DNA of 44,072 nucleotides, the filler included, from Jimgerdemannia flammicorona (taxonomy: Eukaryota), in the NCBI GenBank assembly GCA_003990765.1. It is 2 parts of 2 records of this genome, joined end to end, with 100 filler letters (N's around TTAATTAATTAA, not from the genome) between each part and the next. Parts side by side here need not be neighbours in the genome. Positions count along the whole stretch, not along the records: positions 1 to 21,993 come from RBNJ01001352.1; 1 more part is not named here. The stretch is one strand, 5' to 3'. Shown piece by piece: positions 342 to 43,953 of the stretch; the first letter of the stretch is position 1, and each line of letters begins with the position of its first letter. Position numbers and translations under genes: made by a program. The notes below the pieces were generated by a model. That model saw only the letters and a program-made list of their open reading frames with translations. It was not told the DNA's origin and made no database searches.

Positions 342-359
342 TAGTATCTATTAGCTGGT
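342..359 (+). other. Primer-binding site of element A (mutated)
   Basis: TAGTATCTATTAGCTGGT starts 3 nt after the LTR-terminal CA. It equals element B's TGGTGCCCATTGGCTGGT after C>T/G>A changes. Confidence 0.75.
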
Positions 360-454
360 GATTTAAGATGAATCTTACTTTTAAGCTAAAAAATAAACAA
401 CTACTACTGTCTGATTTTGAAGATATATAGATCATCATACAGACTATCATATAG

Positions 455-1790: not shown

Positions 1791-1851
<61 letters not shown>

Positions 1852-1978
1852 GTTACTTGGACTTCCCTTTATTACCTCAATCTACATTAATAATACAATA
1901 TTACCCCCATCCTCTCACCCAATACCCCTTGGATCCCCCTCAACTCCCTCTACCCCTCTCTGTTAGAATACAACCTAG

Positions 1979-4900
1979 TTACCCACCACCTGGACCCTCC
2001 CTCCACTTTTCTGACACATATACTTCACTAATCTCTGGTATCTACCCCCATCAGGTCCCCACCCCTGCCACTAGCTATTCAAAATGTCCAATAGCAGTCA
2101 TTTCCACTATGCTACTCTATCTCTAATCCCTATCTGCTGACCCTTCCTGAATACATATAACCAATACCTAGCTAGCCCAACCCAAATTACCAGAGCCCAA
2201 CCCAGGGTCAGCCATTTGTCCCCAACCCCCCCCCACTAACCTGCAATGGAGCTCACCCCATCTCCCCCCTTCCCCTCCCACCAGGGCTCGCAGTCCTAGT
2301 CTATCAGCAATGTGGTACCAAAAAACCCCCAGAATGTCATACTCACCAAGCCATGTTCAGATATTTGAATCACTCCCCCTTCCTGTCCAACATCCAAACA
2401 TTCCTCACACTCATACTGGCCATCTGCCACCAAGTGTCCAGACCAAAAGTTCAGCATCACATTCTATCTTAGAAACTACTACCACACCACTCAGAACTTG
2501 GGGAGAGCTACTGCATCATCTGCTTACTCCAAGGCCAAAGCTCATTCCAGTTCCACCCCTTGCTGATCCCCACCCTCTACCATCCAGTAGGTCACAGGTC
2601 CCCCTCTAAGCCCCTCAAGTACTCCATATCATCACCAAGCTAAAAGTCCTCTATCAAGATACCACCTAACAGAAGCCTGTCCCATCTCTACATCTGTGGT
2701 CCCCAATCTCCCTTACCTTCATTGCCCTACCATTGAAGACCAATTCTCTGGGCACCATCTACCACCCCCCACCCAAAGCCCTTATACCACATCCTCTCAC
2801 TCCCATCCAGGGCCACCATTGCAAGCAGGTCACCAGATACACCATGGGGGGAATACTGGGCCTCCCACATCCTTTGCATAAGCAGTACCCACTCTTGTCC
2901 CCTTAACTCACTTGCCCTCTTCAGCCACCACACTTATAGGTAATGAAGACATTTGGGGAAGTCCACCAAGCCCAGTCTGCCACCCTCCACAGGTAGAGTC
3001 AGTACCTCTCATCCAATCTGACTTCACTGCTCTGTCCAGATCTATGTCCTTACCATCTTCAGAAGGTATCTGATCACTCATGCTGGAAAATCCAGATAGT
3101 ACCCCACATACCACAGCTTTGGCAGCCAATATACATTCAGCACCATCACCCTTCCTACCAAGGAAATATGTTGACTGCCCCACCATAAAAGTACATCCCC
3201 CCATACTAGGAGTCACTATTCCCATCAAGCGCAAAGAAGGAGAGACCCATATATAGAGAAGTAAATCCCCAGATAGTGAACAGGATCTCCTGCTGGCACC
3301 ACTATCCCAATCATATTACTACCAACTATACCTCCACCTAACACCATAGTCTCACATTTGTGCCAATTAAGTCTAGCACCAGAGCCTCTCTCATACTATT
3401 CCACAGTCTGCTGTAATTCCTCCACATCTGCCAATGAACCCAATCTAACTACCATATCATCTGCAAAGGTCCCCACCTTCCAATTAATCTCCAGAATATC
3501 TAAACCCCCAATTCGATGTCTGATCCTGTCCAATAGGGGCTCTAAGGAAAGGGCATACAAGATGGGTGACAAGGGATCCCCCTGCAGCACTCCATGACCC
3601 AGAGGGAAAGTGACCCCCCTGTGTCTATTGACCACCAAGACTGTCTGACTGTCCTCCAAAAGTCTGATTAACAACCTCCGGAACCCTGGTAAAATACTCA
3701 CCTACTTCAGCACCCCTTCTAGCCAGATCCTCTACACTCTATCATATGTCTTCTCCTGATCTAGAAATATCAGTCATCCATCAACCCTGGTAACCCGAGC
3801 CCCTTCAATCACTCTATGGACCCAGGCCATCCCATCACGAATCAACTAACCACCAACAAAACCTCTTTGCTCAACTCCCAGCACTTGCTGAGCGATCTCC
3901 CACAGCCTAGCCACCAAGACCTTTGTAACCAGCTTGCAGTCCATATCAAGGAGCATGATCAGATGCCAGTTCTTCTAATCTTCTCTTTACCCCTTATCTT
4001 TAAAGAGCAAAGAGACCAGCCCTAGATGCTGGCCCCCAATCTAAGTTCTAGACCAAAGAACCTCATCACATATCCCTGTCAACTCCTCCAACACTACCTC
4101 CACCCTGGCCATCTTTTTCCAAAAATCCCAGGGAAGGCCATCCTCTCCCAGTGCTGTCCCCTTGCTTGTCGAAGCCAGGACCTTGCAAATCTCCTCTCCT
4201 CTCACTCGGTCCCCCAGAGCCCCTAGACCCATCACTGGGTTCAGATGCTAATCCTCCAACTGCCATTCAATGTTCAAGGTATCTTCACCCCCTTCTTCCT
4301 TACTTCATAGGTCCTCCTAGCAGGATCTTAGCAATCCCAAAATTGCTGGAGTCCCCACTACTATCTCCCCATCCTCATCCAAAACACTATCCCACTGCTG
4401 CTTAGTTCTCTGCACTTGTAACATCCATAATAAAAACCGAGTGGGTTGCCCCCCCTCCTCCAACCCTTGCTACCTTAACCTTGTTACCATCCCCTTCAAT
4501 GTAGCCTCTTCCTCCAACCATAGCACCTCCTTAAGTTTCCTGACCTCTGTTTGAATCCTTACAATATGCCAGTCTATTACATACCTCTCTATCTTCTAGT
4601 ACCCCTGCCCATCTCTCCAGGAGTGTTGCCAGCCTCTGCAAGGCCCAGTGTACTCTCTGCCACCACTAAGCACTCCTCCCTTTCTCTGCCTCCCTCTAAT
4701 ATCCCTGAGCACTTGATTTCAGCCTTCTCCAATGATCCCCAATCACCAGGCCCCACTCCCACCATTGACTGATTTTTCCAATGACCCCCATCTCCCAATC
4801 AGCCCATAAATCGCTATCCTTCAACAAAGAGAAATTGAGCTGCCAATATCTAGGCCCATCCCCACTTCCCCCAAACCTCCCCCCCCCAAGCAAACCTCAG

Positions 4901-5580
4901 TGATCAGATCATGGATACCAAACCACCTCCAGCATAGCCCAGACACCCACTTCCCAGCATTCCACTGTCAGTATCCAGTCAATTCTAGAGCCCAGCCCAG
5001 CCACCCAGTGAGTATAAATTCAACAATCCTCTCAGAACTGTCTCTCTGAGTCCACCAAAGAGCTCAACCTTTCCATCTCCATCCAACCATCCAACCTGCC
5101 ACTTTGACCCTTCATCTCTCTCCCACCATTGGTCTGGTCCATTACATTATCTCTTACTATGTTGAAATCCCCCCCCAGGCATTCAATTTCAGCCTCAACC
5201 ATAACACCAGCCTCTTGCAAATTCCTGATCCAGTCCACCTACTCCCCCCTGTCTGCTAGGTAATAATATGACCCAACCATCAAAGGGCTCCAACCAGGCC
5301 TCTTCTACACTTCCTATACCAACCGACTCCCTCAATGTCCTATATCACCAATGCCCTCCATCCCCTTTCGAACTAGGATACCCACTCACTCAAACTACAC
5401 TGCCACTCTCCCCCACTCTCTAGTCCAATCCAGAAAGTCCACATCTGCCTTATAATGTATATCCTGTAGTAAGAAGAGATCCACATCCAGCCCCTTGAGC
5501 TAACCAAATATAAACCTTTGCCGAGCCACCCCCCTCAACCCATTTATGTTCAAAGAGAATATTTTAGTTATACTATTCAT
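1979..5580 (-). pseudogene. LINE ORF2: APE endonuclease + reverse transcriptase (stops and frameshifts)
   Basis: Motifs MNSITKIFSLNINGL..LQDIH, GGDFN, RIDWIL, SDH, DQEKTYDRV, GVLQGDPLSPILY and FADD. The 3' end is approximate. Confidence 0.92.
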
Positions 5581-7417
5581 ATTGAATAATGTTTGAATGT
5601 GATAACTCAGCCTAGTACTCCATGCTCATCTCATCCCCAGTCAGATCCAATTGCTACTCTGCTTCCAAGTCCCCCTTCACTACAGCCTGAGCATCCAATA
5701 CCTCCAAGATTTCCTGACATTCCACCCCATCCACCACTTCTATCTCTGCCTGATAGTCTGCACAGACCACTCTCCACTTCTCCAATCCCTTCCTTGATCC
5801 CTACAAGTAAGCCACCCTATTATTCACAATCTCCTGGAGTTCCTCCTCTCTCTGATCATCGACCTGATATTCAACTGATTCTAATAGTACTATCAGGATC
5901 TCATTCCTAACCTTTCTTGATACCTCCTCTCCATGAAGAATTTCCTTCCAATGCCTTTCTTCCATAACCTAGAAGTCCTCTCTCCCCAGCTTCTCTGCTG
6001 CCACCTCTTCCAAAGTCTTCTATAGCCACTTCTCCTCATCTACTACCTCCACCATACCCTGGGCAATCTGACCATCTCCCACCCCTAGGTCCACCAAAGT
6101 GCTCCTCCTCACCAACTCATCCCACTCCTTATCTGGGATATCCAGTAACTCCTCCTCACCCTCTGCTCCCTCAGAGACACTATACTGAGGTCAGACTCCT
6201 TTGCTCATCTCTACATCTGCCTCCATACTGCCCTGCATCTCCTCTCTTGGTCTGACCTGGGCCCTATCTCAAGCCATCCCACTTCCTCCCACCCAGTCAC
6301 TCACATGCAATCCTGCTATCCCATTCCCTGTGCTACTGCCAGCCCCACTACCACCCAACTTCGCCAGCAGCTTCTTCTGGATTCTCCTCCCTTGCATCTT
6401 CTCCCAGGTCACCTTGTCCACTCTGGTCCTCTTCCCTTCAATGACTTCCACCACTATCTTCACTTCATACTTCTGCCAAGCCAATCTCCTCCTCTTGACC
6501 ACCCCCTCCAGGTCCTCAAGAGCCTCAAGCAAATCTTTCTCCTCCTCTAGAGACCCCTTCACTCACATGACCTTACACTCTACTAGTCCCTACTTTAGAG
6601 TCACTGGCCAATCCCTTGTCTTTCCCATGTTCTCCTTTCTGGCCAGCCTCACCCAGACATCAATGTCACCAGTCCTGAGCTCCATTCCTTCCCAGACCTT
6701 GAACCTAATATCCACAATCTCCCCATACTCCTTGACCGCCCCCACAATCAGCTCTCTGGCCCTCTCCCTTGACACTATAGGAAGATCCAACACTGTCAAC
6801 TACACCACTTGGGGGTCCCAGCACATACACCTAGCCATAGGGACCACAACTTCACCCACCATCACCCCCTTCTCCATAGCAGCCAACAATGCTTCCTCTT
6901 CCTCAAACTCCACCTCAACTCCTTCTTTCCCCTTCAAAAACTTCACTGATGCTGTCCCCTTCGCCTCCTGTACCACTAGTCTCAAGATCATCCTCACAGT
7001 CATTACCAAGCCCCTGAAGCACATCATGATGGCAAATTCCAACCTAGATTTCTTGAGTAACAGTGCCGACACCATGCCCGTCACCCCATCTGCCAGGTCC
7101 CTGGGCCTCATGCCCACCCTCTGTCCTGATTCATCAACTGCCATCACATCTGGATTTTTTGCCAGATCCCCAGTCACAGCTCCATCAACAGTCACATCAC
7201 CAGCTCCTACTCCCCCCCCTCCCCTACCACTGGACACTCTCCTGGGTACTCCTCTCTGACTTCCAGTAGTAGCTATTGATGCCTTCCCCAGTCCCAGCCA
7301 ACCATCCAGATCTGAGATCATCCTCCTCATCTTGACCTTGTCAGCCAAGGTCAACCTCTCCCCTCCTCACTGTCTCAAGCCACCCCTCCCTCTACCACTA
7401 GTGTCTTGGCCAGCCAT
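5573..7417 (-). pseudogene. LINE ORF1 (gag-like, degenerate)
   Basis: In-frame fragments 6800-7354, 6590-6799 and 6269-6562 are separated by single stops. The final stop overlaps the ORF2 ATG. The start is approximate. Confidence 0.75.
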
Positions 7418-7782
7418 CGAGGCCCCTGGCATCCCCAAACCATCTTCTCTCCTTTCCACCTATTGCCAGCCAAAGGCACCACTGCCCCCCTGGCCAGTAT
7501 GCTCACCAGTTCAATCATTGCCATCTATGTCAATAGTTGTCTGTTATCAAAAATGTTGAAAAAGTATTGTCTGAGTCTTGTGTCACCTGAATGGTACTAG
7601 TGAAAGATGTGTGGCCCTCACTTAGCTACCAACTACTGGGTAACCCAAAGGAATCTATACTAGATAGATTATGAAGTTATAAGCCTATAATATAACTATT
7701 GTACACTACTTTGGAAGAACTAATACCAATATAGATGCTCTCTTATAGATACTTCAAAGGACTTCTAACCAGTAAATCAATC

Positions 7783-8966
7783 ATGAATAAGGAGCTCTAC
7801 TATTGAATTATCATCTATCTGAGATAGTGAAAGATATCCTAACATCTGAAAGAATGAATATAAAAAATTATCAATAGAACATATAAATAATTTAAAACTG
7901 ATAAAGAAATACTGAAAAAAGAAAAACTACTAGTCATACTTAAATATAAAAAGAAGCAAGCAATGAAATCAGTATATGAACTTAGCTATCTAAGAGAAAT
8001 AAATATATATGATAAAGTAAGAAAAACAATACAGTGATCAGAAATAGAGAAAGATATCAGATAATTTATCAAGACCTATAATAAATACCAGAAACAGAAA
8101 CAAGACCAACAAAATCAAGCTCCTGGATTAGTATACATAGAACTAGTACCCTTTGTATATATTGCAATAAATATAATTAGCCCCCTACCCTTGACTTTAA
8201 ATAGCAACTGATATATTATTATTATTATAGACCTTTTCACAAAATAAATAGAGGCAGAACCCCTCAAAGAAGCCAATATATAGTCAATTACCAATTTCTT
8301 TTATAAAAAAATCATCTGCTAATTTACGACTCCAACATAAGTAACAACAGACAGAGGAATAGAATTTATGAATTAGTTCTTTGAGGTTCTCTATAAGAAG
8401 TACAAGATCTAGTATATTTGGACTATAGCCTATTACCCTCAGAAAAATAAATAAGCAGAAAGAACTAATAAAACTCTCAAGAATGTCATCATCAAGATCT
8501 GCAATAATTATGAAAACTGGAACCACTAGCTATCAATAGCATTATCTGCTCTCTAAGATATCTAATTACAAAGTACCTATTTTACCTCTTGGGAGATACT
8601 ATTCAGAGAAGAAAGTTCTCAAGAAATCTTATTGTCCAATAGAGATACTATATAGATATAGAGATATGGAGACTATATCAAATTAGAAAGAAGGCTGAAG
8701 ATTATATAACTAAGATACAGGTACTATAACAGAATAATGTGAAAAAGTTTTATAAGTCTTTAGAGATTATCAAGATAGAAGATAAAGTCTTAATATATCA
8801 GAATATAGTAGAAGCTTTATAGTCATAAAAGCTGGAGCCTAAGTGAGAAAAATCTTACCTTATACAAGATATAAAAGGAACTACCTTTTAGTTATAAAAA
8901 CTTTCAAGTATAATTATCTCCACTACTACTCATCAAAATCAACTCAAGAAATATCATGACCAGTAA
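7783..8966 (+). pseudogene. Integrase of element A (separate ORF)
   Basis: Starts MNKELYY. Shows a degraded HHCC zinc finger, IDLFTKIIEA, TDRGIEF, AERTNKTLK and KLEPK*..NQLKKY. Confidence 0.88.
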
Positions 8967-8974
8967 GCAAAGTA

Positions 8975-9392
8975 ATGACATTGCTCTCAAGATTACCAGT
9001 TACCCAACAAGCCATAGAAAGACAGTAGTATTCTACTGAGTTACTAACTATAGAGAAATCCTTCAATAGTATCCAGAGTATAGTATAGATACATCTATCA
9101 CAAATCTCATATTTTAAGATCTATCAGAACTAAACTGAGTTTTAAAAATACTTCAAGTTAAGATAGCTACCCAGAAATGAAAAAAGAAGATTATATTAGA
9201 GAATGTCAGCTCTCTTATACTCAGATTACTATTGCCAAAAGAGTATATAAGTTATTCAAAGAAGGTGAAACAGCTCTAGCTTATTTCTGAGAAGTAGCTC
9301 TAAGAGACTTTGGGTACATCAAAAGATAATATTGAGAGAACATAATAGCACAAATTATATAGTATAAGGAGATTCAATTGATTGAGGCTTAG
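8975..9392 (+). pseudogene. Accessory ORF between integrase and 3' LTR of element A (unknown function)
   Basis: YPEMKKEDYIRECQLSYTQITIAKRVYKLFKEG..RDF aligns without gaps to the accessory ORF of element B. There is a probable frameshift near 9160. Confidence 0.65.
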
Positions 9393-9441: not shown

Positions 9442-9906
9442 TGTGATAGTTGATCCAAATTAGAAACATAAATCAGGAGAATAGATATTTAATTATAGTA
9501 TCTGAATCCAATTTCCAAATATAGTATAGTCTTATAAAAGTAGTCATATTTTGCAAATATAGAAAACTTTAGCAAATACTAAAGATTCTACAGATACTGA
9601 AATTCTTACAATTACTAAAGATTCTGCAGATATTGAAAAAATACAATACTTGTAAAAAGTGACTTATAACTCAACTACCTTATGCTAGCAAACTTGTATA
9701 AATATCTCAGTATCTAGAGTAAATAAACCTCAGATTAAAATAGTTTAAAGTAAAGAGAAAGCAAGAGAACTAGTAAGCCTATAGGCAGATATACTTTAAA
9801 CTCACCCACTCCTATATCTCAAAGACTCTATAGAGTCAAAGAAGATCAAGTTTTCAAAATATAAAAATTCAATATACTTATATAGTTATGTATCTGCTAT
9901 ATTATA
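9442..9906 (+). repeat. 3' LTR of element A (~465 bp)
   Basis: Begins TGTGATAG right after the polypurine tract and ends TATTATA (mutated TATTACA). Confidence 0.88.
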
Positions 9907-10738
9907 ATAGTAACTTTCTCAACTTATAAGGCTATAGTAGTATAAAGATCTTCAATTTTATAGTATTCTTTATTAGTAAGAGTACTGTCTGAGTTATGAT
10001 GATCATTTTATCTATTAGTATAGTAATTGATATCTATTTACTTAATAAATACTATTACTTAATTTGATTTTTCTTTAAATAATATAAGTTAAAGATCTTT
10101 CATTAGTTTATTTACTTTGATATTGAGATGAAGAGCTTAGATAAGAATTATTACTTAATTAATAAGAACTACTATTTTATTATTAATAGAAGTTATTTTA
10201 TTATTCTTATTATAATATAGTAGTAATAGTCTTATTTTAGATATAGTTATTTTAGAGATATTACTAGTATTAGAATATATAGTTACTTTTTCTATAATAT
10301 TACTAAGATAGATAGATAAATTTGATAATTAGGCCATAAGTTAGTAGTCTTAATAGAATTATTGCTAAATTTTCTATAGTAATTTATAATAACTTAATAT
10401 TCTTAATAGTAATTATATAATAGTACTAGAGTTACTAATATTAGATTTTGATATTTCTGTAATTATTTACCTAGATTAGAATAATATAACTAAGGTTTTA
10501 CTAAGTTTAGTAATCTATAATTCTTAGTATTAAATTATTTTTATCTATATAGAAAACTCAGTAATAAAGATAGAATTTTCATTAGTTGGTATAATATTTC
10601 TTATAGTTTAAGAAAATCTTAACTTAGTAATATATAGTTATCTTTAGAGAAGTAATTTGAAAAATATTTACTTATAGCTTTGATAGATTCTTAAATATAT
10701 TTTTCATAAAAGTAACTACTCTAATATCTTTGATATAA

Positions 10739-12325
10739 TATCACATAGTGGTTGCTGAGTTCTTCAAATATATCAGATTCTCTCCAAGGTATATCTTTTA
10801 GACTAATCTCAAGTTTGTTATAAACAAGTTCTTATTGGAGTACTTTTCCAAGATCTTATAGTTCTCAAACTTCTTATCTTTAAACTGTCTTATTATCTCT
10901 TAGATTGCTTATATAGAATTGAGAGTAAGTGAACTAGAACTGAGTTTATTTTAAAAAAAATAAGAGGGGTATTTATATAAAATATAATTTAATAGTTACT
11001 AAGTTATAAAGCTAAATATAAATTCCAATAACTAAATAAAATACTGGAATACAGAAAACTATAGTTGTAAGTACAAGTTTAAGTATCTGTATAAATAGTT
11101 ATACAAGTTTAGAATATGAGTAGAATTTCAGTAGTACAGGAAAAGGATACCAGAAGAATTCTGAGTTATACAAGATCAGAATATCTAGTAGAATCTAGTG
11201 TTACCAAGAACTTAAAGCAGAAAGTTCAGAACTATGAGAGCTTCATCTTTGTCATTATTATCAAGACCAGAGGTCAGAGACAGAATATCTTTGAAGGAGA
11301 TGAGATCTACAAATATTTCATCTATTTCACATATGTTATATATTTTGCATGCTTTGTACATGTCACACAGGATGATGTCATCACCAATGACATCATTATA
11401 AGTGATGTCATCTTATTTGGCAGTAGTAGAGGCTCTCTAATCTATGACATTCTCTTCTACAAAATAAAGAACAAATGTAGGGTCTTGGAGAGGTCTAACC
11501 TGGATACTAGGGCCTTGGAATGCTGAGATCAATCTTTGTATAAATTGATCTGGGTTGTCCTGAAGGATGAGATACTAGAAGTCTTCTACTTCATTACTAT
11601 TGAGGATAATAGTAGACTGAGCCTCTGTAGCCACTATGACCTCCAGTACATTGGTATGGTAGGTGGACAGTTCCTTGAAGTCTGAGATCCTAGTATACTC
11701 TAAGTTGGGGATTGACCATAGTATATGCCAGAAGATCTGATGAATCTTCTTTGCTATCCTTATTTTATGTATATCTATGGAGATAGTATCTTGAATCTCC
11801 TGGAGACTGGCCTGAGGAAACTTCTAACAGAAAAGGTTTCTTATTTCATACTTATGCTATATCCAGAGGTATTCAGTAGCAATGGTAATCCTTATTTCCA
11901 TTTCATAATAGTAGAAGATATAATAATAAGGGTTGTTAGTACCCAAATTGATGCTAGGAGTCCTTATTATGTATGTAAGTCTTCATGGCTCTTCTGATGT
12001 CTTGGAATATTCTTTTCTGGACTGAGGGGCCTTAGTGATTTCTAGACCTTGAGGTTTGACAAGTGGCAGGTATTTGTTTGTAGTAAGTCTTTAAAACTAT
12101 TTCTGTAAGCTTTATTTGAGCTGCTACTACTACAGTTTCTTGATCCTTCTTTTATATTTCTCAAGGTATCTGTCTTGTAGTCATAATGACTCACAGTTAA
12201 TTATTATCACTCATCTTATAGTCTAGATGAGTCATATCATATGATCTTCTTATGCTTCAATCTGATAGCTTATAAGGAAAAGCTGTCTCCTATACTGATG
12301 TTATCATTCTGAAGTCACTATTATA
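10739..12325 (-). repeat. 3' LTR of element B
   Basis: Colinear with 18009-19593. Minus-strand TATA box near 10970 and AATAAA at 10945-10950. Confidence 0.95.
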
Positions 12326-12634
12326 TCTTCCTTCTGAATAAGGATCTTCTTGAATATCCTTATTCATTGGTCCAGTTCTGAAAAATTTACTAATCCCATA
12401 ACCTCTGGCAGGGGGTTGAAAAATGATATTTATGGGCTAGTATCTTCTCTATATATTTTGGCATAATAGTGAAGAGTTGCTCTCTTTATATAGAGCAAGG
12501 ACCTGATTCTGATCTTGATCAATCAGTTGATAGTTTGAACTTCTCTAGCTTTGAAAGTCTCATAGATAAGTAGTTGCTAGTACCATATTCCTTAGAGAAT
12601 GGTCCAGACAGATTGTCTGCTAGTTATGAGACAT
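11413..12634 (-). pseudogene. Accessory ORF of element B spanning the PPT into U3 (up to ~400 codons)
   Basis: The frame is broken only by stops explicable as C>T/G>A, several of which are sense codons in the other LTR copy. One 4-bp indel (11969-11976) makes the N-terminal frame ambiguous. Confidence 0.7.
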
Positions 12635-13884
12635 GCTGTTATAATTCACAGACTAGAACCTTGTGGGTGGTTATCATATTTTGCTTCTCTTATATAGGTT
12701 CATAGTACTTCTTGAGTCTGTTCCTATATATTGTGGTAGGCAGTATAGTCCTTGAGAGTTTTCTAAGCCAGAAGGTAGTTTTCTTAATATTTTATACATA
12801 GAAGAGTCCTTCCTATTTGAGCTTCAGTTTTTGTGACCATGAGGCTTCTACCATGTTTTGATACAGTAGGATCTTTTCTCTGATTTGGATGAGTTCTAGG
12901 GTCTTGTAATTCTTCTCTGCATTCTTCCTTATTAGTACTTATAACTTGATGATATAATCTTCAGCCTTCTTTCTGATTTGGTGTAGTCCCTGGATTTCTG
13001 AGTCAACTTGTCTCCAAGTTAGGTCTAGACTTGTGACTGAGGTTCCATCAGAATCTTCTTCTCTAAAGAGCAGTTCTCTTGGGGTAAAGTGTGTACTCTG
13101 TGACCATATATCTTATGGAATAGAGAGGATAGTTGGGAGATAGTTATCCCAATTGTCATATATATCTGAGATCTTTGCCAGGATGTTCTTGAGGGTCTTG
13201 TTAGTTCTCTCTATCTGTCCATTTCCTTGAGGGTGATATGTGGTGGTCTTGATATACTGGATCTTGTATTTTTAATATATTATCTCATAGAATCTATTGA
13301 CAAATTCTGTACTGTAGTCTGTGGTGATTTGCCTTAGTGTCTTATAGTGGCAGATGATTTCTTGATGCAGGAAGTCAGCTATAGAGAGGATATTGACTTC
13401 TTGTAATACTCCTACTTCTATCTATTTGATAAAGAGATCTACAATAACTATAATATAGCAGTTTCCTGATAATATCACTAGTAGCAGTCCAATAATATCT
13501 ATTACAATGGTGGAAGGGGATAGGCTCAATTCTTGATAACCTGGGTATCTGGTCCTGCTGATCTTATTTCTGTTTTTGGCACTTGTCATACCCTTTGACA
13601 AATTGGTGCAAGTCTTCCTCCATCTTAGACCACTATATGATTCTTCTTGATTTATCATATGTGTTGGTTCCTTCTAGGTATTCTTGTTCATGTACTTTCT
13701 TCATTACTTGATACTTCTTGTATTCAGATATTATGAGTTTTCCTCCTTTTTTGAGTGTAGTGTTGTCTAGTTCAAATTATTTCCAAGTCTAGTTGATAAT
13801 AGTAATAGTCTAGGGTTTGAGGTGGTTAGATATCCTCTGCTACCCAAGATAGCTAATTAATCCATAGTATAGCTCCTTATTCAT
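12623..13884 (-). pseudogene. Integrase of element B (separate ORF)
   Basis: Starts MNKELYY. Shows an HHCC remnant, IDIIGLL..IVIVDLF, YHPQGNGQIERTNKTLK and a GPF-like K*EGLFYV..NRLKKY. Confidence 0.9.
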
Positions 13885-15350
13885 ATTGAATAGTCTTGAT
13901 GGGGGTATTTCAGGATGTTCTTGAGAGTGTATCAGTATTGGCATTAGTTCTTCCTAAGTGATACTTAATAGTACAGTTATACTCTTATAGTCTATAGATC
14001 TATCTGGCATATATTCCTTTAGGATTCAGAGTATAGAATAGCCAGGTGAGAGCAGAATGGTCTGTTTGAATAGTGAAGTATTTCCCAGCTAGGTAGTAGT
14101 AGAACTTATCTACTACTCAAACTACTACTAAGTATTCGAGTTTGAATGACTCATAGTTCTGTTCTGCTCTGTAAGTATCTCAGCTTACATAGGAGATAAC
14201 ATATTTATATCTATCTTTCTTCTGAGCTAGGACTGCTCTAAGTCCTATAGCACTTACATCTGTCTGCAGGATGAACTCTAGGTTCTAATCTAGTCTTCTA
14301 AGAATGGTACTTGAGTCAACCTAGTCTTGAGTTTATTGAAGGTTTCTTGGCATTTCTTAGTCTATTTGAATTTGGTCTCCTTCTTCAGTAGCTCATAGAT
14401 GGGTGCTGTAATATTGAAGTATCCTTTGATAAATCTTCTGTAATAGGAGACCAGTCCAAAGAAGGCATAAACTTCTATAGTTGTTCTGGGTCTTGGGTAG
14501 GCTGCAATAGCCGCAATCTTCATGGGGTCTGTGTGAATTTCAGTCTGGTTGATGAGATATCCTAGGTAGGCAATTTCCTGAGCTACAAACTTGTACTTCT
14601 TAGGCTTAATATAGAGGTTATACTCCTTGAGCTTCTTGAGGGCTAGCTGTATATGGTTAATATGTTTTTGTACAGTATTACTGAAGATGATCACATTATC
14701 AATATAGACAAGAGCCATTTTCCAATCTTATTGCTGAAGACTCTGTTCATTATTCATTAAAAACTTACTAGAGCATTACATATTCCAAATAGTATTCATA
14801 GATAGACATAGGTGATATTAGGTATAATGAAGGCTAATTTCTCACTAACATCTTGAGTGAGACCAATCTGATAGAAGCCTGAGAACAGATCCAAGGTAAT
14901 GTAGTATTTGGCTTTACTTTCAAGAGTGGTAAGAATTTTTTGAATATTTGGCAAGAGCTGCCTATTCTTCTTAGTAATTATATTGAGCTTTCTGTAATCA
15001 ATACAGAGTCTTGGGGCAAACTCTCCAGGCTTGCTTCCTTTCTTTGAGGTAAGGACAATAGGTAAAGCCCAGGGGCTGATAGCTTGCTTAATGATTCTAG
15101 CTTCTTCTATTTTCTTGAGTTCTGCTCACAACCATTCTCTGTAGGCAGATGGTATAGGTCTGGCTTTCTGATAGATAGGCTTGGTATTGCCAGTATAAAC
15201 TTCATGATAGTACTTGAGCTCTTAATTGTAGATGTCCTTGAAGTCTGTGGCAAGTACTCCTTTGTTCTGGTATAAGATCTTGAGAAATTGTTCCTCTAGG
15301 GGAAAGTTTTCTCCATTGATATATGTATACTTATTCTGATCCTTGTCTTT
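13877..15350 (-). pseudogene. Reverse transcriptase + RNase H of element B
   Basis: LCIDYRKLN, TLDLFSGFYQI, VYIDNVIIFS (YIDD mutated), FFGLVSYYRRFI, FILQTDVS and QTDHSALTWL. Confidence 0.93.
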
Positions 15351-15389
15351 CTTGTACTAAAGTTCAGTAATCTTGATAGCAGTATAGGC

Positions 15390-15810
15390 TTCTCTTCCAG
15401 TAAATCCAAAGTCTTGTTCTCCTCTTTTGGTCTTAATAAGTTTAATGGCTTCAGTGATCTTGGGCTTCTTAACTTCATAGATCAGCATCTGGTCAATCCT
15501 ATTATACTTCTTAACTTCAAATAGAGTAGTGGGGTTGTAATTCCTAACTATGGGGAAGATCTCACCAGTGTAATCAGAGTCTATTACTCCTCTTTCAACT
15601 GAGATTTTACTTTTAGCTAGACTGCTCTTGGTCTTGATAATTCTAGTATAGTTCTCTAGCAACTTGACTCCAATTCCAGTATCAAGTAGAGTAGTGGTCT
15701 GTGGTTTGAGGGTAGCATCTTGAATACTGGTAAGGTCTATTCTTATGGCTCCTTCAGTCTTATATTCTGGGATCTTAGCTTTGGGGTGAAACTTCTTAAT
15801 CTTGAGAGTG
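15390..15810 (-). pseudogene. dut: Trimeric dUTPase domain between protease and RT
   Basis: All five motifs are recognisable: GAIRIDL, KSSLAK, GVIDSDYTGEI, RIDQM and RGEQDFGFTG. Confidence 0.93.
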
Positions 15811-16149
15811 ATGTCTGGTTCATCATTGCTGTCAGCTTGAAGCTCTGAGAGCTGGTCATCTTCTTCAGCTTCTCTTTTTGCTTCAGCAATTTCTTGTTTA
15901 TACTTTTGTTGGTAGATTTTCCTGACTTTACTGATATAGGACCAGTAGTTATTTAGGTATTTAGAGCAGTACATCCTGGTACCATGGGGGTATCTTCCTT
16001 AAGGAGCATAATTATCAATGATCTTATTATACTACTGCTCATCTGTGAGCTTAGGTGTCTTGCTTTTGTTCTTATATACCAAGTGTATGAAGACTTCTGT
16101 ATCTTCTTCATCTTCTTCCTCTATGTCTGGTAGTACTTCTTTGTGGATA

Positions 16150-17888
16150 TTAATAAAGACTCATACTTTTCTTCCTCTATAGTTGATCTACATCTTCTGA
16201 ATATTGAGGTCAATGATAGTCTTGGCCTTGTGAAGCTATTGATTGCCAATGAGAATATCATAGTTAGTGGTACTTGTAACAATTATATTTATTGAGATGG
16301 TAGCTCCTCCTATCTTGATGGGTATTTCTCAGATTTTGCCTAGGGGGGTAGCTCATATACTATCTGCTATAATATAGACCATCTTGGTAGACTCTTCAAT
16401 ATTCCAGCCTAGGCAGTCAATTGCCTTCTTGCTTATGAGATATCCTCCAGCACCAGTATCAATGATGACATTAAAGATACAATCTTCAATCTGATATAGA
16501 GTATAGGCTGATATCTTGTACTGGTCTTCAGATTCTTCACCTAAGTCTTCAGATTCTTCTTATATATTGTGAGCTTCTACAATCTTGTACTCTTAATTCT
16601 TAGTAGTAGTTGCAAGTCCTACTCTCAACTTCTATCTGAAAGCAGGGACTTCAGCTAGTTGTCCAAAAGTAGCATTGACCTTCTATTTCTTGAGGTCCTT
16701 ATAAATATCATACTAGTGGATCTTAGTCTTGCATACCTTCTGTTTTTTCTTACTTTTACTTTTTCCTGAAACTGGAGTAGTGTCTTTAATAATTTGGTGA
16801 GCAGCTTCATCTAACTCCATGTCTTGATCAATCTCTTCAGATTAGGTCTTGCTTTGGATAATGATAGCTGGAGTCTTCTTTGGTCTTCCAACTGGCTTAC
16901 TGTTGCTCTTCTTATTATAGAGCTTGGACCAGGTTCTGGTACCTTCAGTAATAGGGTAGAATTCAGACTCTTTGTAGTATTCTTCATCATTAATATTACC
17001 AATCTTCTTAATGACTACTATATTGATTTATTCTCTAGTTCTGGTAGTATTACTTGGTTGGGCTTTGTATCTTATTTCAGTTATGCAACTCTTTGCATAG
17101 TGGCCTTCTTCTCTATATCTAAAGTATGTGATATTATATTCTTCTGTAGTAATTACAAATCTCTATACTAGTCTCCTGTTGGTACTTCAGACTTCTCTAA
17201 TAACATCACTAAGGTATATAGTCATCTCAGTAAACTGCTTGGTGAGTTTCTCTACTAGATCAGCTTTGGCTATCTTGGGGGTAGGTGGGGATAGTTGTCT
17301 GTTTACAACTGTGGCAGATATGATACTGGTTGGCTTTGATGGCTCTATCTTAATGCTAGTTATTTTCTTTATTGAGTATTCAGTAGAGTATCTAGCAGTC
17401 CAATATCTCTATATAAAGACCACTTTCTGGTCAAGGGTCAGAGCAGCTAGGGTAGACTGGATTTCTAGGGCAATTTCAGAGTGAACTTCTTTGAGGAAGG
17501 TTGAATTCACTATTTGGTTCTTGAGGCAGTCATAATAGCCAGCTAAGACAATCTGGTAGCAGATTTAGGTATAGAATGAGTTGGAATCTTCACTGAGTCT
17601 CTGGCAGATAGTATTGAGTTGATCCTTGAGAGCTTACTTGATCTCTTTAATATAGTATATAGTTCTGAAGAAGTTCTTCATGTTGGCAAGTTTGGCTGCA
17701 CCAGCATCAGCAATAGTGGCTGCATTGAACTTATCTCTGGCAGATCCTCTGAGGCTAACAGATAGAAGAGCCAATTATGCATCTATATCAAGAACTTATA
17801 TAACAGTAAATTGTTCAAAGTCTTTAATAAAGGTCAGAATTAACTCTTCAGTAGTATATCCATAGAATGTAGAGGGATAAATTTTCAT
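16150..17888 (-). pseudogene. Gag + aspartic protease of element B
   Basis: Zinc knuckle YFRYREEGHYAKSC (CCHC with TGY>TAY) near 17094-17135. Protease VIIDTGAG and ILIGN. The gag ATG is in frame with the dUTPase ORF. Confidence 0.85.
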
Positions 17889-17987: not shown

Positions 17988-18005
17988 ACCAGCCAATGGG
18001 CACCA
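17988..18005 (-). other. Primer-binding site of element B
   Basis: TGGTGCCCATTGGCTGGT starts 3 nt after the LTR-terminal CA. The cognate tRNA was not identified. Confidence 0.8.
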
Positions 18006-18008
18006 AGT

Positions 18009-19593
18009 TGTTACATAGTAGTCACTGAGTCCTTCAAATACATCAGATTCTCTCTAAGGTATATCTCTTAGACTAACCTCAAGTTTGTTATAAGCAAGTT
18101 ATTATTGGAGTATCTTCTTAAGGTCTTATAGTCCTCAAACTTCTTATCTTTAAACTGTCTTATTATCTCTTAGATTGCTTGCATAGAATTGAGGGTAAGT
18201 GAACTAGAACTGAGTTTATTTCAAAGGAAATAAGAGGGGTATTTATACAAAATATAATTCAATAATTACTAAGTTATAAAGCTAAATATAAATTCTAATA
18301 ACTAAATAAAATACTGAAACACAGAAAACTACAGTTGTAAGTACAAGTTCAAGTATCTGTACAAATAGTTACACAAGTTTAGGATGCCAGTAGAATTTCA
18401 GTAGTACAGGAAAAGGATACCAGAAGAATTCTGAGTTATATAAGATCAGAATGTCAGAAGAATTACAGTTATATAGAAAAAAAATGCTGGTAGAATCTGG
18501 TGTTACCAAGAACTTAGAGCAGAAAGTTCAGAACTATGGGGGCTTCATCTTTATTACTATCATTAAGGCCAGAGGTCAGAGATAGGATATCTTTAAAGGA
18601 GATGAGATCTATGAATGTTTCATCTATTTCACATATATTATACAGGATGACATCATCACTGATGATGTCATTATAGGTGATGTCATCTCATTTAGCAGCA
18701 GTGAGAGCTCTCTAATCTATAACATTCTCTTTCACAAAATAAAGAACAAATGTAGGGTCTTAGAGAGGTCTAATCTGGATACTAGAACCTTGGAATACTG
18801 AGATCAATCTCTGTATAAATTGATCTGGGTTGTTCTGGAGGATGGGATACCAGAAGTCTTCTACTTTATAACTATTAAGAGTGATAGTGGACTGAACCTC
18901 TGTAGCCACCATGGCCTCTAGTATATTGGTACAGTGAGCAGACAGTTTCCTGAAGTCTGAGATCCTAGTATACTTCAAGTTGGAGATTGATAGCGCATAC
19001 CAGAAGACCTGATGAATCTTCTTTGTTGTCTTTATTTCACATATATCTATAGAGATAGTATCTTGAATCTCTTGGAGACTGGCCTGAGGGAACTCCTGGC
19101 AGAGAAGGGTTTCTATTTCATACTCCTACTATATTCAGAGATATTCAGTAGCAATAGTGATCTCTGTTTCCATTTTACAGTAGTAGAGGATATAATAATA
19201 AGAGTCACCAGTACCCAGATTGATGCTAGAAGTCCTTATTGTGTAAGTCCTCATGGCTCTTCTGATGTCTTAGAATATTCTTTTCTAGACTGAGGGACCT
19301 TAGTGGTTCCTGAATCTTGAGGTTTAGTGAGCAGCAGGTATTTGTTTGTAGTAAGTCTTTAGAACTATTTCTATAAGCTTTATTTGGGCTGTTGCTACTG
19401 CAGTTTCTTGATCCTTCTTTTATATTCCTCAAGGTTTCTATCTTGTGATCATAATGACTTACAGTTGATCATTATCACTCATCTTGTAGCCTGGGTAAGT
19501 TATACCATATAATCTTCTTGTGCTTCAATCTGGTAGCTTATAAAGAAAGGCTGTCTCCTATGCTGATATCATCATTCTGAGGTCACTATTATA
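18009..19593 (-). repeat. 5' LTR of element B (carries a second copy of the U3 ORF segment, 18688-~19590)
   Basis: Colinear with 10739-12325 and ends TGTAACA on the minus strand. Confidence 0.95.
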
Positions 19594-20804: not shown

Positions 20805-21244
20805 ATATAATCAAAACTTATAGACTTGAGTAGTAGAGTATTGAAAATCTCCTCCCACCTCATATATAGAGAGAACTAGATCCTACTCACTATTCTGTAC
20901 TTTGAAAGGAGGTTTTCTTTATTTGTTACTCTATTTAGAGTAACAGAGACTATTTTATTTAGCTTAGATATAGTCTTATATATATATTGAGATTTCAGAT
21001 ATATGTCTTCAGTTATTGATATATATAGTTGCTTTCTTTCTAGTAGTAGGGAGAGTATAATATATAGAATGAGATATGAGCTACCATAAGCCCTATTGTA
21101 TCTAATATAGTTAAGCTACTAGATAATAGCTAGCTTGGGTTTAATAGAGGTATAATACTCTTAGAAGGTAGTGGGAGAGAATTTTGACCTATATAGTCTA
21201 GATTTCTTCTATTAAAAATCTGTAGGACTTCAAGTCTATTTAAA

Positions 21245-21254
<10 letters not shown>
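20805..21254 (+). mobile_element. Poly(A)-tailed SINE-like or 5'-truncated non-LTR element, copy 1, followed by (TA)n
   Basis: Homologous to the reverse complement of 22094-22553. Ends CCTATATAGTCTAG..A-tail. Confidence 0.75.
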
Positions 21255-32330: not shown

Positions 32331-32636
32331 CTATCTATTCTGGTATTCTAGCTCACCATCTTGCCAACCTGTCTTACCATCCCATTCTTGCTACCTCATT
32401 CTTGTCACTCTGTTCTCATCACTCCATTCTCATTACCAATTATGTCTTATTATCTACATCAGTACATCATCTGAGCATACTGTCTCACTATTCTTTTCTC
32501 TATTCTTAGGTATGCCTTGATACTTATTTCAGATATATTATATTTATTCTATATTATATACTTGCTTCTTACTATAGCAGTAACTCAGCTATAGCAGTGG
32601 CTTGCTCATAGAGGTGGGGGTGAGGGTGACTTAGTA

Positions 32637-33080
32637 GCTGGTCATAGGAGTGTCTCATAATCTATACTGATAACATACTCTCTTACTCAAGGAGGATCTC
32701 TCACAGCTGGTCTCTGGCATCTTGTTCCAGATAGCATCTGCTTTGATGGAGGCTGGTCAGAGGGGTGTCTTCTGATCTGTACTGACAAAGTACTCTCTCT
32801 CTCAAGGAGGATCTCTTACAGCTAGTCTCTGGTATCTTATTCTAGATAGCATCAGCTTCAGTAGAGGCTGGTCAGAGGGGTGTCCCCTGATCTGAACTAA
32901 TGAAGTACTCTCTCTCTCAAGGAGGACCTCTCATGGCCAGTCTCTTATCATTCTGTCCCAGGCAGCATCAGGCTCAGAGGAGGCTAGTTGGGAGAGTATC
33001 TCCTGATCTGCACTAACAAAGTACTCTCTCTCCCAAGAAGGATCTCTTATAGCTAGTCTTCAGTATCCTATTCTAGATAG
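32637..33080. repeat. ~115-bp tandem repeat, about 3.8 units
   Basis: Units start at 32637, 32752, 32867 and 32983; the core is TACTCTCTCTCTCAAGGAGGATCTC. Confidence 0.9.
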
Positions 33081-33114
33081 TTTCTTTATTTTTTTTCATA
33101 ATTGACTATACTTC

Positions 33115-33400
33115 TGTCTTGCCAGTTTCTCATCTGCTAGTTTCTTATCTGCCAGTTTCTCACTTGCCAGTTTCTTGCCTGCCAGTTTCTCATCTACCAG
33201 TTTCTTATCTGCCTGTTTCTTGCCTACCAGTTTCTTACCTATTAGTTTCTTGTCTATTAGTTTCTTGTCTGCCAGTTTCTCATCTGCCAGTTTCTCATCT
33301 GCCAGTTTCTTGTCTATCAGTTTCTTGTTACTGGTTTCTTATCTGCTCATTTCTTGTCTGCTGGTTTCTTATCTATCAGTTTCCCATCTGTCAGTTTTCT
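33115..33400. repeat. 15-bp minisatellite CTGCCAGTTTCTCAT
   Basis: About 19 units, probably a 5-aa repeat of a decayed minus-strand ORF. Confidence 0.9.
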
Positions 33401-41631: not shown

Positions 41632-42713
41632 ATGTCTCAATCCCCCTTCGACAATAAGCACGCCCACGCTGTCCTCATTGGTACGAACATGGCGTCCTCG
41701 ACAACAAGCTCATCGGCATGATCAACGACGCTGAATTGCTTTATGAAATCCTCGTCGACTCGTCACTGCTGACAGGGGAGCAGGCGACACGAGAAAACAT
41801 CATGAATGTGCTGGATGAACTGGCTTCAGCAACTGAAGACGACAAAGAAGCAACGGTGTTGATTTTCTATTCGGGACGTGGACACCGCGAGAAGGATAAT
41901 AACAGCAACTGGAATGTATACCTTACGCCTTACGGAGCACGGGCCGGCGCCGAACTGATTGACAATTCGGAGCTTCATAGGAAACTTAAAGCATTGGATT
42001 CGAAACAGACCATCTTGCTGTTGAATTGCTGTTTTGCCGCGGGAATCGGAGCTCTCAGCGAATTGGGTACGGGCCACCAAAATGAGAAAGAACTGATGGC
42101 ATTGGGCAACGTGCCTCTCACAAAGAAGAGCATCGACTATTTAAAGGAACATCGCGGATTATGCGTGCTTTCGTTGTCGATGGCCAACGAGAGATCATGG
42201 ACAGGTGTGGCTCTTACCTTTCAATAGAAAAAATACAGCATCTTTACGCTGGGCATTTGCAAGGCGCTCATGGGCGCGTGCTTGAAAACGGCGGGATTCG
42301 TCTACCTGTCCCAAGTCGCGAACTTTTACTAAGAGTACACTCGTTCCAAAACCGATAAGAAGCAAAATCCCTTTCTCGATTTTGCCGGAATCGACAATGC
42401 TCCGATGGCATACTACTCCGACACACTGTTAGCTCAACTTCGGGCACTTGGTGACGAGGACGACGATGTCGAACTTGAAAAATCTGACACCGAGTCGAAT
42501 GACAATGTTGCAGAAAAGAGAACGCACCATGTCGTTTTTAATGGAAACGTGAAAGCGAGCCAGGATGCGAGGGTGATTGCGGGAAGTACTTTTAAGATTA
42601 GTAATGTCAGCGGAGTCGGTAGTTTTTCTGTCTTTGGTGATATAAGGGGGGGGGTCCGGAAATCCAAGATAGCGCAGATGGCAATAGCCAACATTTGTGA
42701 TACCTTTTCATAA
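41632..42713 (+). pseudogene. Intronless caspase-like (peptidase C14) gene with acidic linker and C-terminal amyloid-like repeats; disrupted
   Basis: Motifs HAVLIG, LIGMINDA, QATRENI, IFYSGRG, LLLNCCFAAG, YSIFT..ALMG, GFVYLSQV and QNP. Lesions: frameshift near 41688, stops at 42225 and 42330, catalytic His>Arg at 41877. Confidence 0.85.
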
Positions 42714-43252: not shown

Positions 43253-43343
43253 GACAGATTTGAAAGTTGTAGTCCTCCCTTCAGAAAGGAGTATGCACGC
43301 ACCAAAATCGCGCGTGACATCTGCCTTATCTGAATATATCTGT

Positions 43344-43953
43344 TGTCATGTAGTGGTCGCTGAGTCCTTCAAATATGCCAGATTCGCTTCAAGGTGTATC
43401 TCTTAGACTAACTCAAGTTTGTTATAAGCAAGTTCTTATTGGAGTGCCTTCCCAAGGTCTTATAGTCCTCAAACTTCTTATCTTTAACTGTCTTGTTATC
43501 TCTTAGATTGCTTGCAAGGAAGTGTGTGTATTGCACTGAGAAGACTGACTTTATTTCAGAGGAAATAAGATGGGTATTTATACAAAATATAATTCAATGG
43601 TTGCTAAGATATAAAGCTAAATATAAATTCCAATAACTAAAACTACTAAGTTCCAGGGTTGGCACTGATGGTTGTACAGGTTCAGGATGCTGGTATAATT
43701 CAGTGTCACATCAAAATACCAGTGCTGAAACAATTTTGCATCACCTCAGAATGCCGGTGCTGGCATTATCCAGTGTTACATGAGAATACCAGTGCTGGCA
43801 TTATCCAGTGTAACAAAGAACTTAGAGCAGAAAGTTCAGGATCATGGGGGCTTCATCATCATCATCACTGAAGGAGATGAGGTCCGCGAATTCGTCATGC
43901 AGGCCGCGCGTCTCGCGTACTTCGTTGTCGCGCGTCTCGCGTACTTCGTTGTC
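43344..43953 (-). repeat. Partial, less-mutated LTR of the element B family
   Basis: TGTCATGTAGTGGTCGCTGAGTCC.. is colinear with 10739 and 18009. It has a 24-bp tandem duplication at 43906-43953 and is cut by a poly(A) insertion. Confidence 0.9.

Follow-up and report, generated by a model that had tools for sequence, protein, structure and literature searches.

A conserved accessory gene within the long terminal repeats of a dUTPase-bearing Ty3/Gypsy retrotransposon from Jimgerdemannia flammicorona

Introduction

A conserved, non-env accessory gene lies inside the long terminal repeats (LTRs) of a retrotransposon in the genome of Jimgerdemannia flammicorona (assembly GCA_003990765.1). The retrotransposon, here called element B, occupies the minus strand of the 44,072-nt stretch analyzed in this work (the window), which joins two parts of that assembly across 100 filler letters, with positions 1 to 21,993 coming from RBNJ01001352.1. 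Element B is a Ty3/Gypsy (Metaviridae) LTR retrotransposon bearing a dUTPase domain, and a related Ty3/Gypsy element, A, lies on the plus strand of the same window. Each LTR of element B holds one decayed copy of the gene, and intact relatives are found in environmental sequence collections.

LTRs are usually taken as non-coding promoter and terminator modules and are masked by annotation pipelines, and an LTR-internal gene is otherwise known mainly from a few retroviruses. Element B presents a conserved gene under selection in U3 (the LTR portion upstream of the genomic transcription start), with a predicted promoter that appears to be its own. Taken together, the evidence favors, with a probability of roughly 0.7, a dUTPase-bearing Gypsy lineage with an expanded U3 and a complete LTR gene, likely forming its own transcription unit and, more weakly, encoding a regulator.

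A complete gene in U3

The features that define the gene and its place in the LTR are as follows.

11212-12073, minus strand: LTR gene, copy in the 3' LTR, a pseudogene with an ATA start, six stops and a 4-bp frameshifting insertion at 11974-11977
18514-19341, minus strand: LTR gene, copy in the 5' LTR, a pseudogene of 275 codons plus stop, with an ATA start and ten stops
10743-12325, minus strand: 3' LTR of element B, about 1.58 kb; its true ends may be 10739 and 12321-12325
18013-19593, minus strand: 5' LTR of element B, 84% identical to the 3' LTR over about 1.6 kb compared
12326-12335, minus strand: polypurine tract AGAAGGAAGA, adjoining the 3' LTR, about 250 nt upstream of the open reading frame (ORF) and outside it
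10967-10977, minus strand: TATA-2, TATAAATACCC, the canonical LTR TATA box, with copies at 18237-18247 and 43572-43582

A preliminary description, made from the sequence alone, had reported a sense open frame upstream of the TATA box in the B LTR, and such a frame is present in both LTRs, ahead of TATA-2 at 10967-10977 and 18237-18247. In the 3' LTR the ORF spans 12073 to 11212, with the LTR starting at 12325 and TATA-2 at 10977-10967, placing it wholly in U3 and upstream of the LTR promoter. The gene starts 252 nt inside the LTR, at an ATA (12073-12071 and 19341-19339) that aligns to the MPA with which its relatives begin, and ends at a TAA (11214-11212 and 18516-18514) about 235 nt ahead of TATA-2. 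Relative to the 5' copy, the 3' copy carries further insertions of 3 nt and 27 nt that keep the frame, in addition to the frameshifting 4-bp indel, which the description had correctly noticed. The longest open sense run is 121 codons in the 5' LTR (18763-19125) and 82 codons in the 3' LTR.

The same description drew a longer gene, an ORF of about 407 codons running from an ATG at 12634 at the integrase end through the polypurine tract into U3 and ending at 11413, with a positional variant in element A; we consider this version very improbable. The 103 codons from 12634 to 12326 contain five stops, and five more stops shared by both LTRs precede the true start. One of these, a TAA inside the conserved upstream motif TATAAAAG, is in frame in both LTRs and in two unmutated metagenome contigs (L001 and L002), and an upstream extension of the ORF is therefore blocked. 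The relatives start at MPA, which corresponds to a position some 250 nt into the LTR, and a check of 7860 candidates revealed no longer or fused forms. At the other boundary, the codon at 11413 is a mutated arginine codon, the stop sitting at 11214-11212. The points in favor of the longer version come from element A and are considered with that element below.

The interruptions within the ORF are largely explained by decay, as had been proposed. Of ten stops private to one LTR in the range concerned, nine read CAA, CAG or TGG in the other LTR and one does not, and at the four places within the ORF where both LTRs share a stop, the closest intact relative, P0007, has Q, W, W and R. Restoring C and G from the LTR pair, a check suggested at the outset, leaves the shared stops in place and opens only 138-139 codons. 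Since the restored pair retains stops and contains an equally long antisense frame, the two copies alone are indecisive; the stops are accounted for instead by the intact relatives.

Intact relatives and selective constraint

A word-seeded search with the 121-aa open stretch alone found no relative, so a profile search was needed, its query combining both element B copies read through with X at stops. Against 1.84 billion representative proteins, the profile retrieved four at E <= 0.001 (2e-67, 2e-39, 3e-22 and 2e-18), all free of stops, the uninterrupted relatives being 138-342 aa long, and a wider search brought the number to nine proteins, 87-342 aa in length and devoid of Pfam domains. All nine come from jgi or ena, on contigs 600-4848 nt long, none being named from an annotated genome. 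Complete, uninterrupted ORFs are also carried by the metagenome contigs L001 (323 codons, 55% identical to P0007 at the protein level) and L002 (291 codons). Intact ORFs span 271-342 codons across three diverged lineages, and the protein start MPA is common to P0007, P0005, P0006, L001 and L002.

The converse search, with a profile of ten rows from outside the window, recovers the gene in the 5' LTR (19338-18517, E 7e-100, profile positions 2-277) and in the 3' LTR (11967-11215, E 1e-90, with 12064-11957 in the neighboring frame), as well as the last ~40 codons in a third, truncated B-type LTR (43923-43825, E 0.002). No match other than these three B-type LTRs appeared in the six frames of the window.

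Constraint on the protein is evident from the two metagenome contigs. Between L001 and L002, the ratio of nonsynonymous to synonymous proportions of differences (pN/pS) is 0.53 in frame, as opposed to 1.06 and 0.96 in the shifted frames, of which only the direction is to be read, and the differences at codon positions 1, 2 and 3 number 126, 101 and 168. The ratio of nonsynonymous to synonymous substitution rates (dN/dS) for the LTR pair was left aside as uninformative, the two LTRs having diverged after insertion.

The LTR-borne gene is therefore real and conserved, a non-env accessory gene as the preliminary description had held. That the frame is open merely by chance in an A-rich LTR is scarcely credible: an antisense frame of 137 codons does occur in the same LTR, and other AT-rich parts of the window contain frames of 120-137 codons, but the reading is contradicted because intact ORFs of 271-342 codons exist in three lineages, constraint is frame-specific and E values reach 1e-100. 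The antisense frame itself (11113-11526, plus strand), which overlaps the 3' end of the gene, is interrupted in the 5' LTR, and L001 has no antisense frame longer than 84 codons; it is probably a chance frame.

Another possibility is that a host gene or gene fragment was transduced into this LTR, in which case the relatives would be the host gene and the sequence would have no role for the element. The family shows no detectable relation to gag or pol, and the LTR context of L002, P0005 and P0006 is not demonstrated, both of which would suit such an origin. We regard it as improbable, however, because L001, at 55% identity to P0007, has B's upstream TATA box, leader, TATA-2, AATAAA and a U5-like tail, and because the family members all come from short jgi or ena contigs, none named from an annotated genome. 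Moreover, one soil-metagenome DNA run (X1, share 0.05) yielded thousands of short contigs spanning the whole element including the LTR, 3635 matching contigs being too short to bridge the LTR junction.

Among viral contigs, 62 pattern matches included no true relative. One further candidate, L003, was judged spurious, its similarity consisting only of a 16-residue pattern match of 10.9 bits. L002 contains a 33-nt direct repeat (170-202 and 1481-1513, 82% identical, spacing 1311 nt) with the ORF between its copies, which could represent enhancer-like motifs or assembly through LTR copies.

Decay of the two copies

Both element B copies have been inactivated by C:G-to-T:A transitions resembling those of repeat-induced point mutation (RIP). 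The 195 substitutions that separate the LTR pair comprise 189 transitions and 6 transversions, with 53 of 105 C/T sites standing before A and 42 of 84 G/A sites after T; this CpA bias is moderate, and another deamination process is possible. The TpA/ApT ratio is 1.06-1.13 in the elements, as against 0.73-0.75 in the non-repeat parts of the window. In the X1 contigs, 416 of 677 places that differ from the window have A or T in the window and G or C in the contigs, and 203 show the opposite. Decay of this kind, together with the element type, points to a fungal host.

Promoter and processing signals

Several short signals surround the gene, in addition to TATA-2.

12149-12156, minus strand: TATA-1, TATAAAAG, in the 3' LTR, 76 nt ahead of the ORF start
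19417-19424, minus strand: TATA-1 in the 5' LTR, the same TATAAAAG
12074-12091, minus strand: conserved leader AAGACTTACTACAAACAA, directly 5' of the start codon
10945-10950, minus strand: AATAAA, 16 nt past TATA-2, with the 5' LTR copy at 18215-18220
126-136 and 9694-9704, plus strand: TATA-2 equivalents in element A

The motif TATAAAAG is invariant in all four sequences available (both LTRs, L001 and L002, representing three lineages) and its flanks are unconserved; the spacing from it to the conserved leader and ATG, AAGACTYACYACAAACAA, is 50-70 nt. This pattern of an invariant motif in unconserved surroundings, followed by a conserved leader, leads us to infer a predicted promoter belonging to the LTR gene itself. 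Downstream of the gene, TGTATAAATACCCCTC and, about 20 nt further on, AATAAAC(C)TCAG are kept in B, in the third LTR and in L001, and AATAAA is also kept in the short LTR of element A. TATA-2 is the ancestral genomic promoter, with a predicted start site for genomic RNA, because element A with its short LTR and L001 carry it too; the gene, standing upstream of it, lies in U3.

The encoded protein

Among the five proteins that keep the N-terminal region, the net charge of residues 1-45 is +1 to +8, as against -2 in the truncated P0010. Invariant residues occur in the core, for which a helical structure is predicted. The tail is acidic, with a net charge of -15 to -26, 21-32% aspartate plus glutamate and 26-32% bulky hydrophobic residues, and displays a recurring F-x-[DN]-L-[IL]-x-F motif as well as LNF near the C-terminus. 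Such a composition resembles that of acidic activation regions, hinting weakly that the product may be a nuclear regulator of the element's own expression or of host silencing. An IAK motif proposed in the preliminary description does not hold across the copies, the 5' LTR copy reading TTK.

Proposed explanation and its alternatives

The U3 of this lineage would have grown by about 1.25 kb, the extra sequence amounting to a complete sense gene of 271-342 codons in the intact relatives. With the gene entirely in the LTR, each element would carry two copies and each solo LTR one. Transcription from TATAAAAG would give an mRNA of about 1.15 kb, most likely ending at the LTR's own AATAAA, and genomic RNA would start at TATA-2. 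The LTR could thus be viewed as a self-contained gene, made up of an upstream TATA box, leader, ORF and AATAAA, that overlaps the genomic promoter. As the AATAAA falls between TATA-2 and the likely genomic start, it would be active only at the 3' end of the genomic RNA.

Several observations weigh against this explanation. Synonymous divergence in the L001-L002 comparison has reached saturation (pS 0.75), which makes the corrected dN/dS of 0.14 unreliable and leaves the direction of the effect as its only dependable part. Beyond the window, it is the homologous LTR tail of L001 alone that places the gene in an LTR, as L002 and the other relatives are short contigs lacking pol or LTR ends. Furthermore, the protein has no Pfam relative at E <= 1 apart from a noise match at 0.13, no PDB chain in a sequence search at E <= 10 and no usable relative in the ESM Atlas, where the top scores of 0.83 and 0.89 went with few features in common, and both AlphaFold models are poor (predicted local distance difference test scores of 41.8 and 38.2), leaving composition as the sole ground for a functional assignment. 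Finally, the conserved AAG before the leader could equally serve as a splice acceptor.

This last point underlies an alternative in which the same gene is expressed in the manner of sag or nef, from a subgenomic mRNA spliced from the TATA-2 transcript of the 5' LTR, with that AAG as acceptor and TATAAAAG serving some other role. Splicing is the known route for retroviral U3 genes, and it would suffice on its own for expression, U3 being present at the 3' end of every genomic RNA; in all three lineages, moreover, an AG lies directly 5' of the conserved leader ACTYACYACAAACAA. Yet splicing does not explain why TATAAAAG is invariant and spaced 50-70 nt away, as a promoter would be, no polypyrimidine tract precedes the AG (the stretch being A-rich), and no donor site has been identified. 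We hold this route to be unlikely.

Returning to a gene with its own transcription unit, a bolder extension can be formulated, which we offer as a distinctly doubtful speculation. The LTR would have two promoters, TATA-1 driving a nuclear, acidic-tailed transactivator or anti-silencing factor that would still be expressible from solo LTRs. The gene would once have been a post-pol accessory gene, taken into U3 by an upstream shift of the plus-strand priming site. A fungal retrotransposon would then possess regulatory circuitry like that of retroviruses.

Anatomy of element B

The remaining features of element B and the third B-type LTR are listed here.

17989-18006, minus strand: TGG-initiated run TTGGTGCCCATTGGCTGG resembling a primer-binding site (PBS), a few bases past the 5' LTR; a candidate site
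16356-16559, minus strand: gag-asp_proteas (Pfam, weak)
15360-15998, minus strand: dUTPase domain (Pfam, 1e-19) in pol, between protease and reverse transcriptase (RT)
14365-15125, minus strand: RVT_1 (Pfam)
13116-13271, minus strand: rve_3 (Pfam, weak, below the cut-off), an integrase trace
43342-43925, minus strand: third B-type LTR, truncated, with only the last ~40 gene codons and the LTR tail left

Paired direct LTRs, a polypurine tract and a PBS-like run, together with the order protease, RT, integrase, identify element B as a member of the Ty3/Gypsy group. TTATA occurs at both flanks of the element, provided that the LTR starts at 12321. The dUTPase frame is still open over 213 codons amid the surrounding decay.

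The third B-type LTR is a solo LTR or a 3' LTR, because no PBS was found after it. It has decayed less than the element B LTRs and is cut at about 43925, inside the LTR gene. Another repeat begins where it breaks off, with 21167-21254 matching 44047-43960.

Element A and the proposed homolog

Element A was described at the outset as harboring a homolog of the LTR gene, outside its LTR. Its relevant features are given below.

11-349 and 9581-9915, plus strand: LTRs of element A, about 335 nt each
~343-360, plus strand: decayed PBS-like equivalent
9168-9311, plus strand: proposed homolog, between the integrase end (~8959) and the 3' LTR (9581-9915); not significant against the family profile

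The two elements share 65-70% DNA identity in RT, RNase H and integrase (A 1394-1794 and 7644-8908 matching B 14436-12751), and the whole A LTR aligns only to the last ~330 nt of the B LTR, by which comparison the U3 of B is about 1.25 kb longer than that of A.

The 48-codon block aligned between A and B had been read correctly, each string on the sense strand of its element, and its ungapped score of 31 (8 of 48 identities, 22 positives) makes it the best 48-mer over all frames, with 2 of 100 shuffles equaling it. In A, the family profile also settles on this place (9207-9311), which speaks for the positional variant and with it for the ~407-codon version. The profile score there is -0.8 bits, equaled by 20 of 200 shuffles, however, and blastn of the A tail against the B LTR gave nothing above a reversed control past the integrase; gapped A/B alignments, moreover, disagree between the two LTR versions. 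By these shuffles and the family profile the homology is not significant, and a gene shifted relative to the LTR between A and B loses its basis as a finding. The block is a weak hint at most: in so heavily decayed an element it may be a relic, and the shifted position is best treated as a hypothesis.

Element A is broken by a GC-rich insert at ~1800-7640. Over 2000-7600 on the plus strand, the composition of the insert is very asymmetric between the strands, at A 0.249, C 0.369, G 0.126 and T 0.256 (GC skew about -0.5); it contains an RVT_1 trace (3399-3701, minus strand) and long plus-strand frames rich in S, P, T and L, and, unlike its surroundings, shows no RIP signature. Near the 5' end, tandem and direct repeats (455-721 repeated at 725-1007, and 1020-1212 at 1142-1326) occupy the place expected for gag, protease and dUTPase, and most of the 5' internal region is apparently gone from element A.

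Other features of the window

Two tandem-repeat arrays, one with a period of about 115 nt and the other of about 15 nt, lie at 32603-33366, the 15-nt array encoding a PVSHL-type repeat in a plus-strand frame of 197 codons; a Pfam search of this frame returned no family. At the GC-richer, non-repeat end of the window, a Peptidase_C14 (caspase) domain at 41658-42224 (plus strand, E 4e-10) is probably part of a host gene.

Implications

If the proposed explanation is true, an element of this kind could bring along two doses of a factor that is regulatory or directed at the host, solo LTRs dispersed through the genome may be genes that code for protein, and U3 can grow by taking in a gene. Additionally, profile searches against environmental proteins are able to resolve frames decayed by RIP.

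Comparison with known systems

Lineage-specific orphan ORFs have precedents among the Ty3/Gypsy elements of plants and fungi. Retrosat2/RIRE has ORF0, an orphan ORF upstream of gag-pol in the internal region (PMC3485330), and brtn of Boty is presented as an additional ORF of BcGypsy1 (10.1101/2021.04.13.439636). Both are comparable to the B gene as lineage-specific orphans, and neither is a sense ORF inside an LTR. The brtn gene is antisense.

In the position of its dUTPase, element B is like the dUTPase-bearing fungal Gypsy elements of Postia, Phanerochaete and Tuber (Tmt1), the pertinent section on PosPlaTy3-5 placing the dUTPase between protease and RT (PMC2864245). The text portion of that paper mentions no LTR-internal ORF, and a figure legend in it lists an 'add. 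ORF' whose position belongs to the figure. No sense ORF inside a fungal LTR was found in the literature text surveyed, a scope that leaves aside subscription papers, figures and supplements, of which those of PMC2864245 could bear on the point.

Retroviruses offer closer parallels. The nef gene of human and simian immunodeficiency viruses (HIV/SIV) is an accessory 3' gene involving U3 that starts upstream of the LTR and overlaps the polypurine tract. The B gene does not follow this arrangement, since its start lies some 250 nt into the LTR, with an in-frame stop barring extension. The sag gene of mouse mammary tumor virus (MMTV) is an accessory sense ORF wholly in U3, present in both LTRs and distinct from gag, pol and env. 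It is alike in position to the B gene and fits better than nef, although MMTV is a betaretrovirus and element B a member of the Metaviridae in a fungal-type host. Pfam and PDB searches gave no sequence relation to Sag, and, unlike sag, the B gene comes with its own TATA box and leader, both conserved, and its product is acidic and helical, with no sign of a membrane protein seen. An LTR that contains an ORF is likewise reported for MMTV (PMC9412291).

The closest analog of the proposed mechanism is found in the foamy-virus Tas/Bet system, with no homology shown and with transactivation by the B product suggested by its composition only. In foamy viruses a second, internal promoter, located within env, expresses a regulatory gene that sits close to U3 or overlaps it. 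Its product, of about 300 aa, has an acidic C-terminal activation region, and for the most part these viral genes fall outside the LTR. Set beside these systems, the B gene would be the fungal equivalent of accessory genes in complex retroviruses, belonging to an orphan family with at least 10 environmental members.

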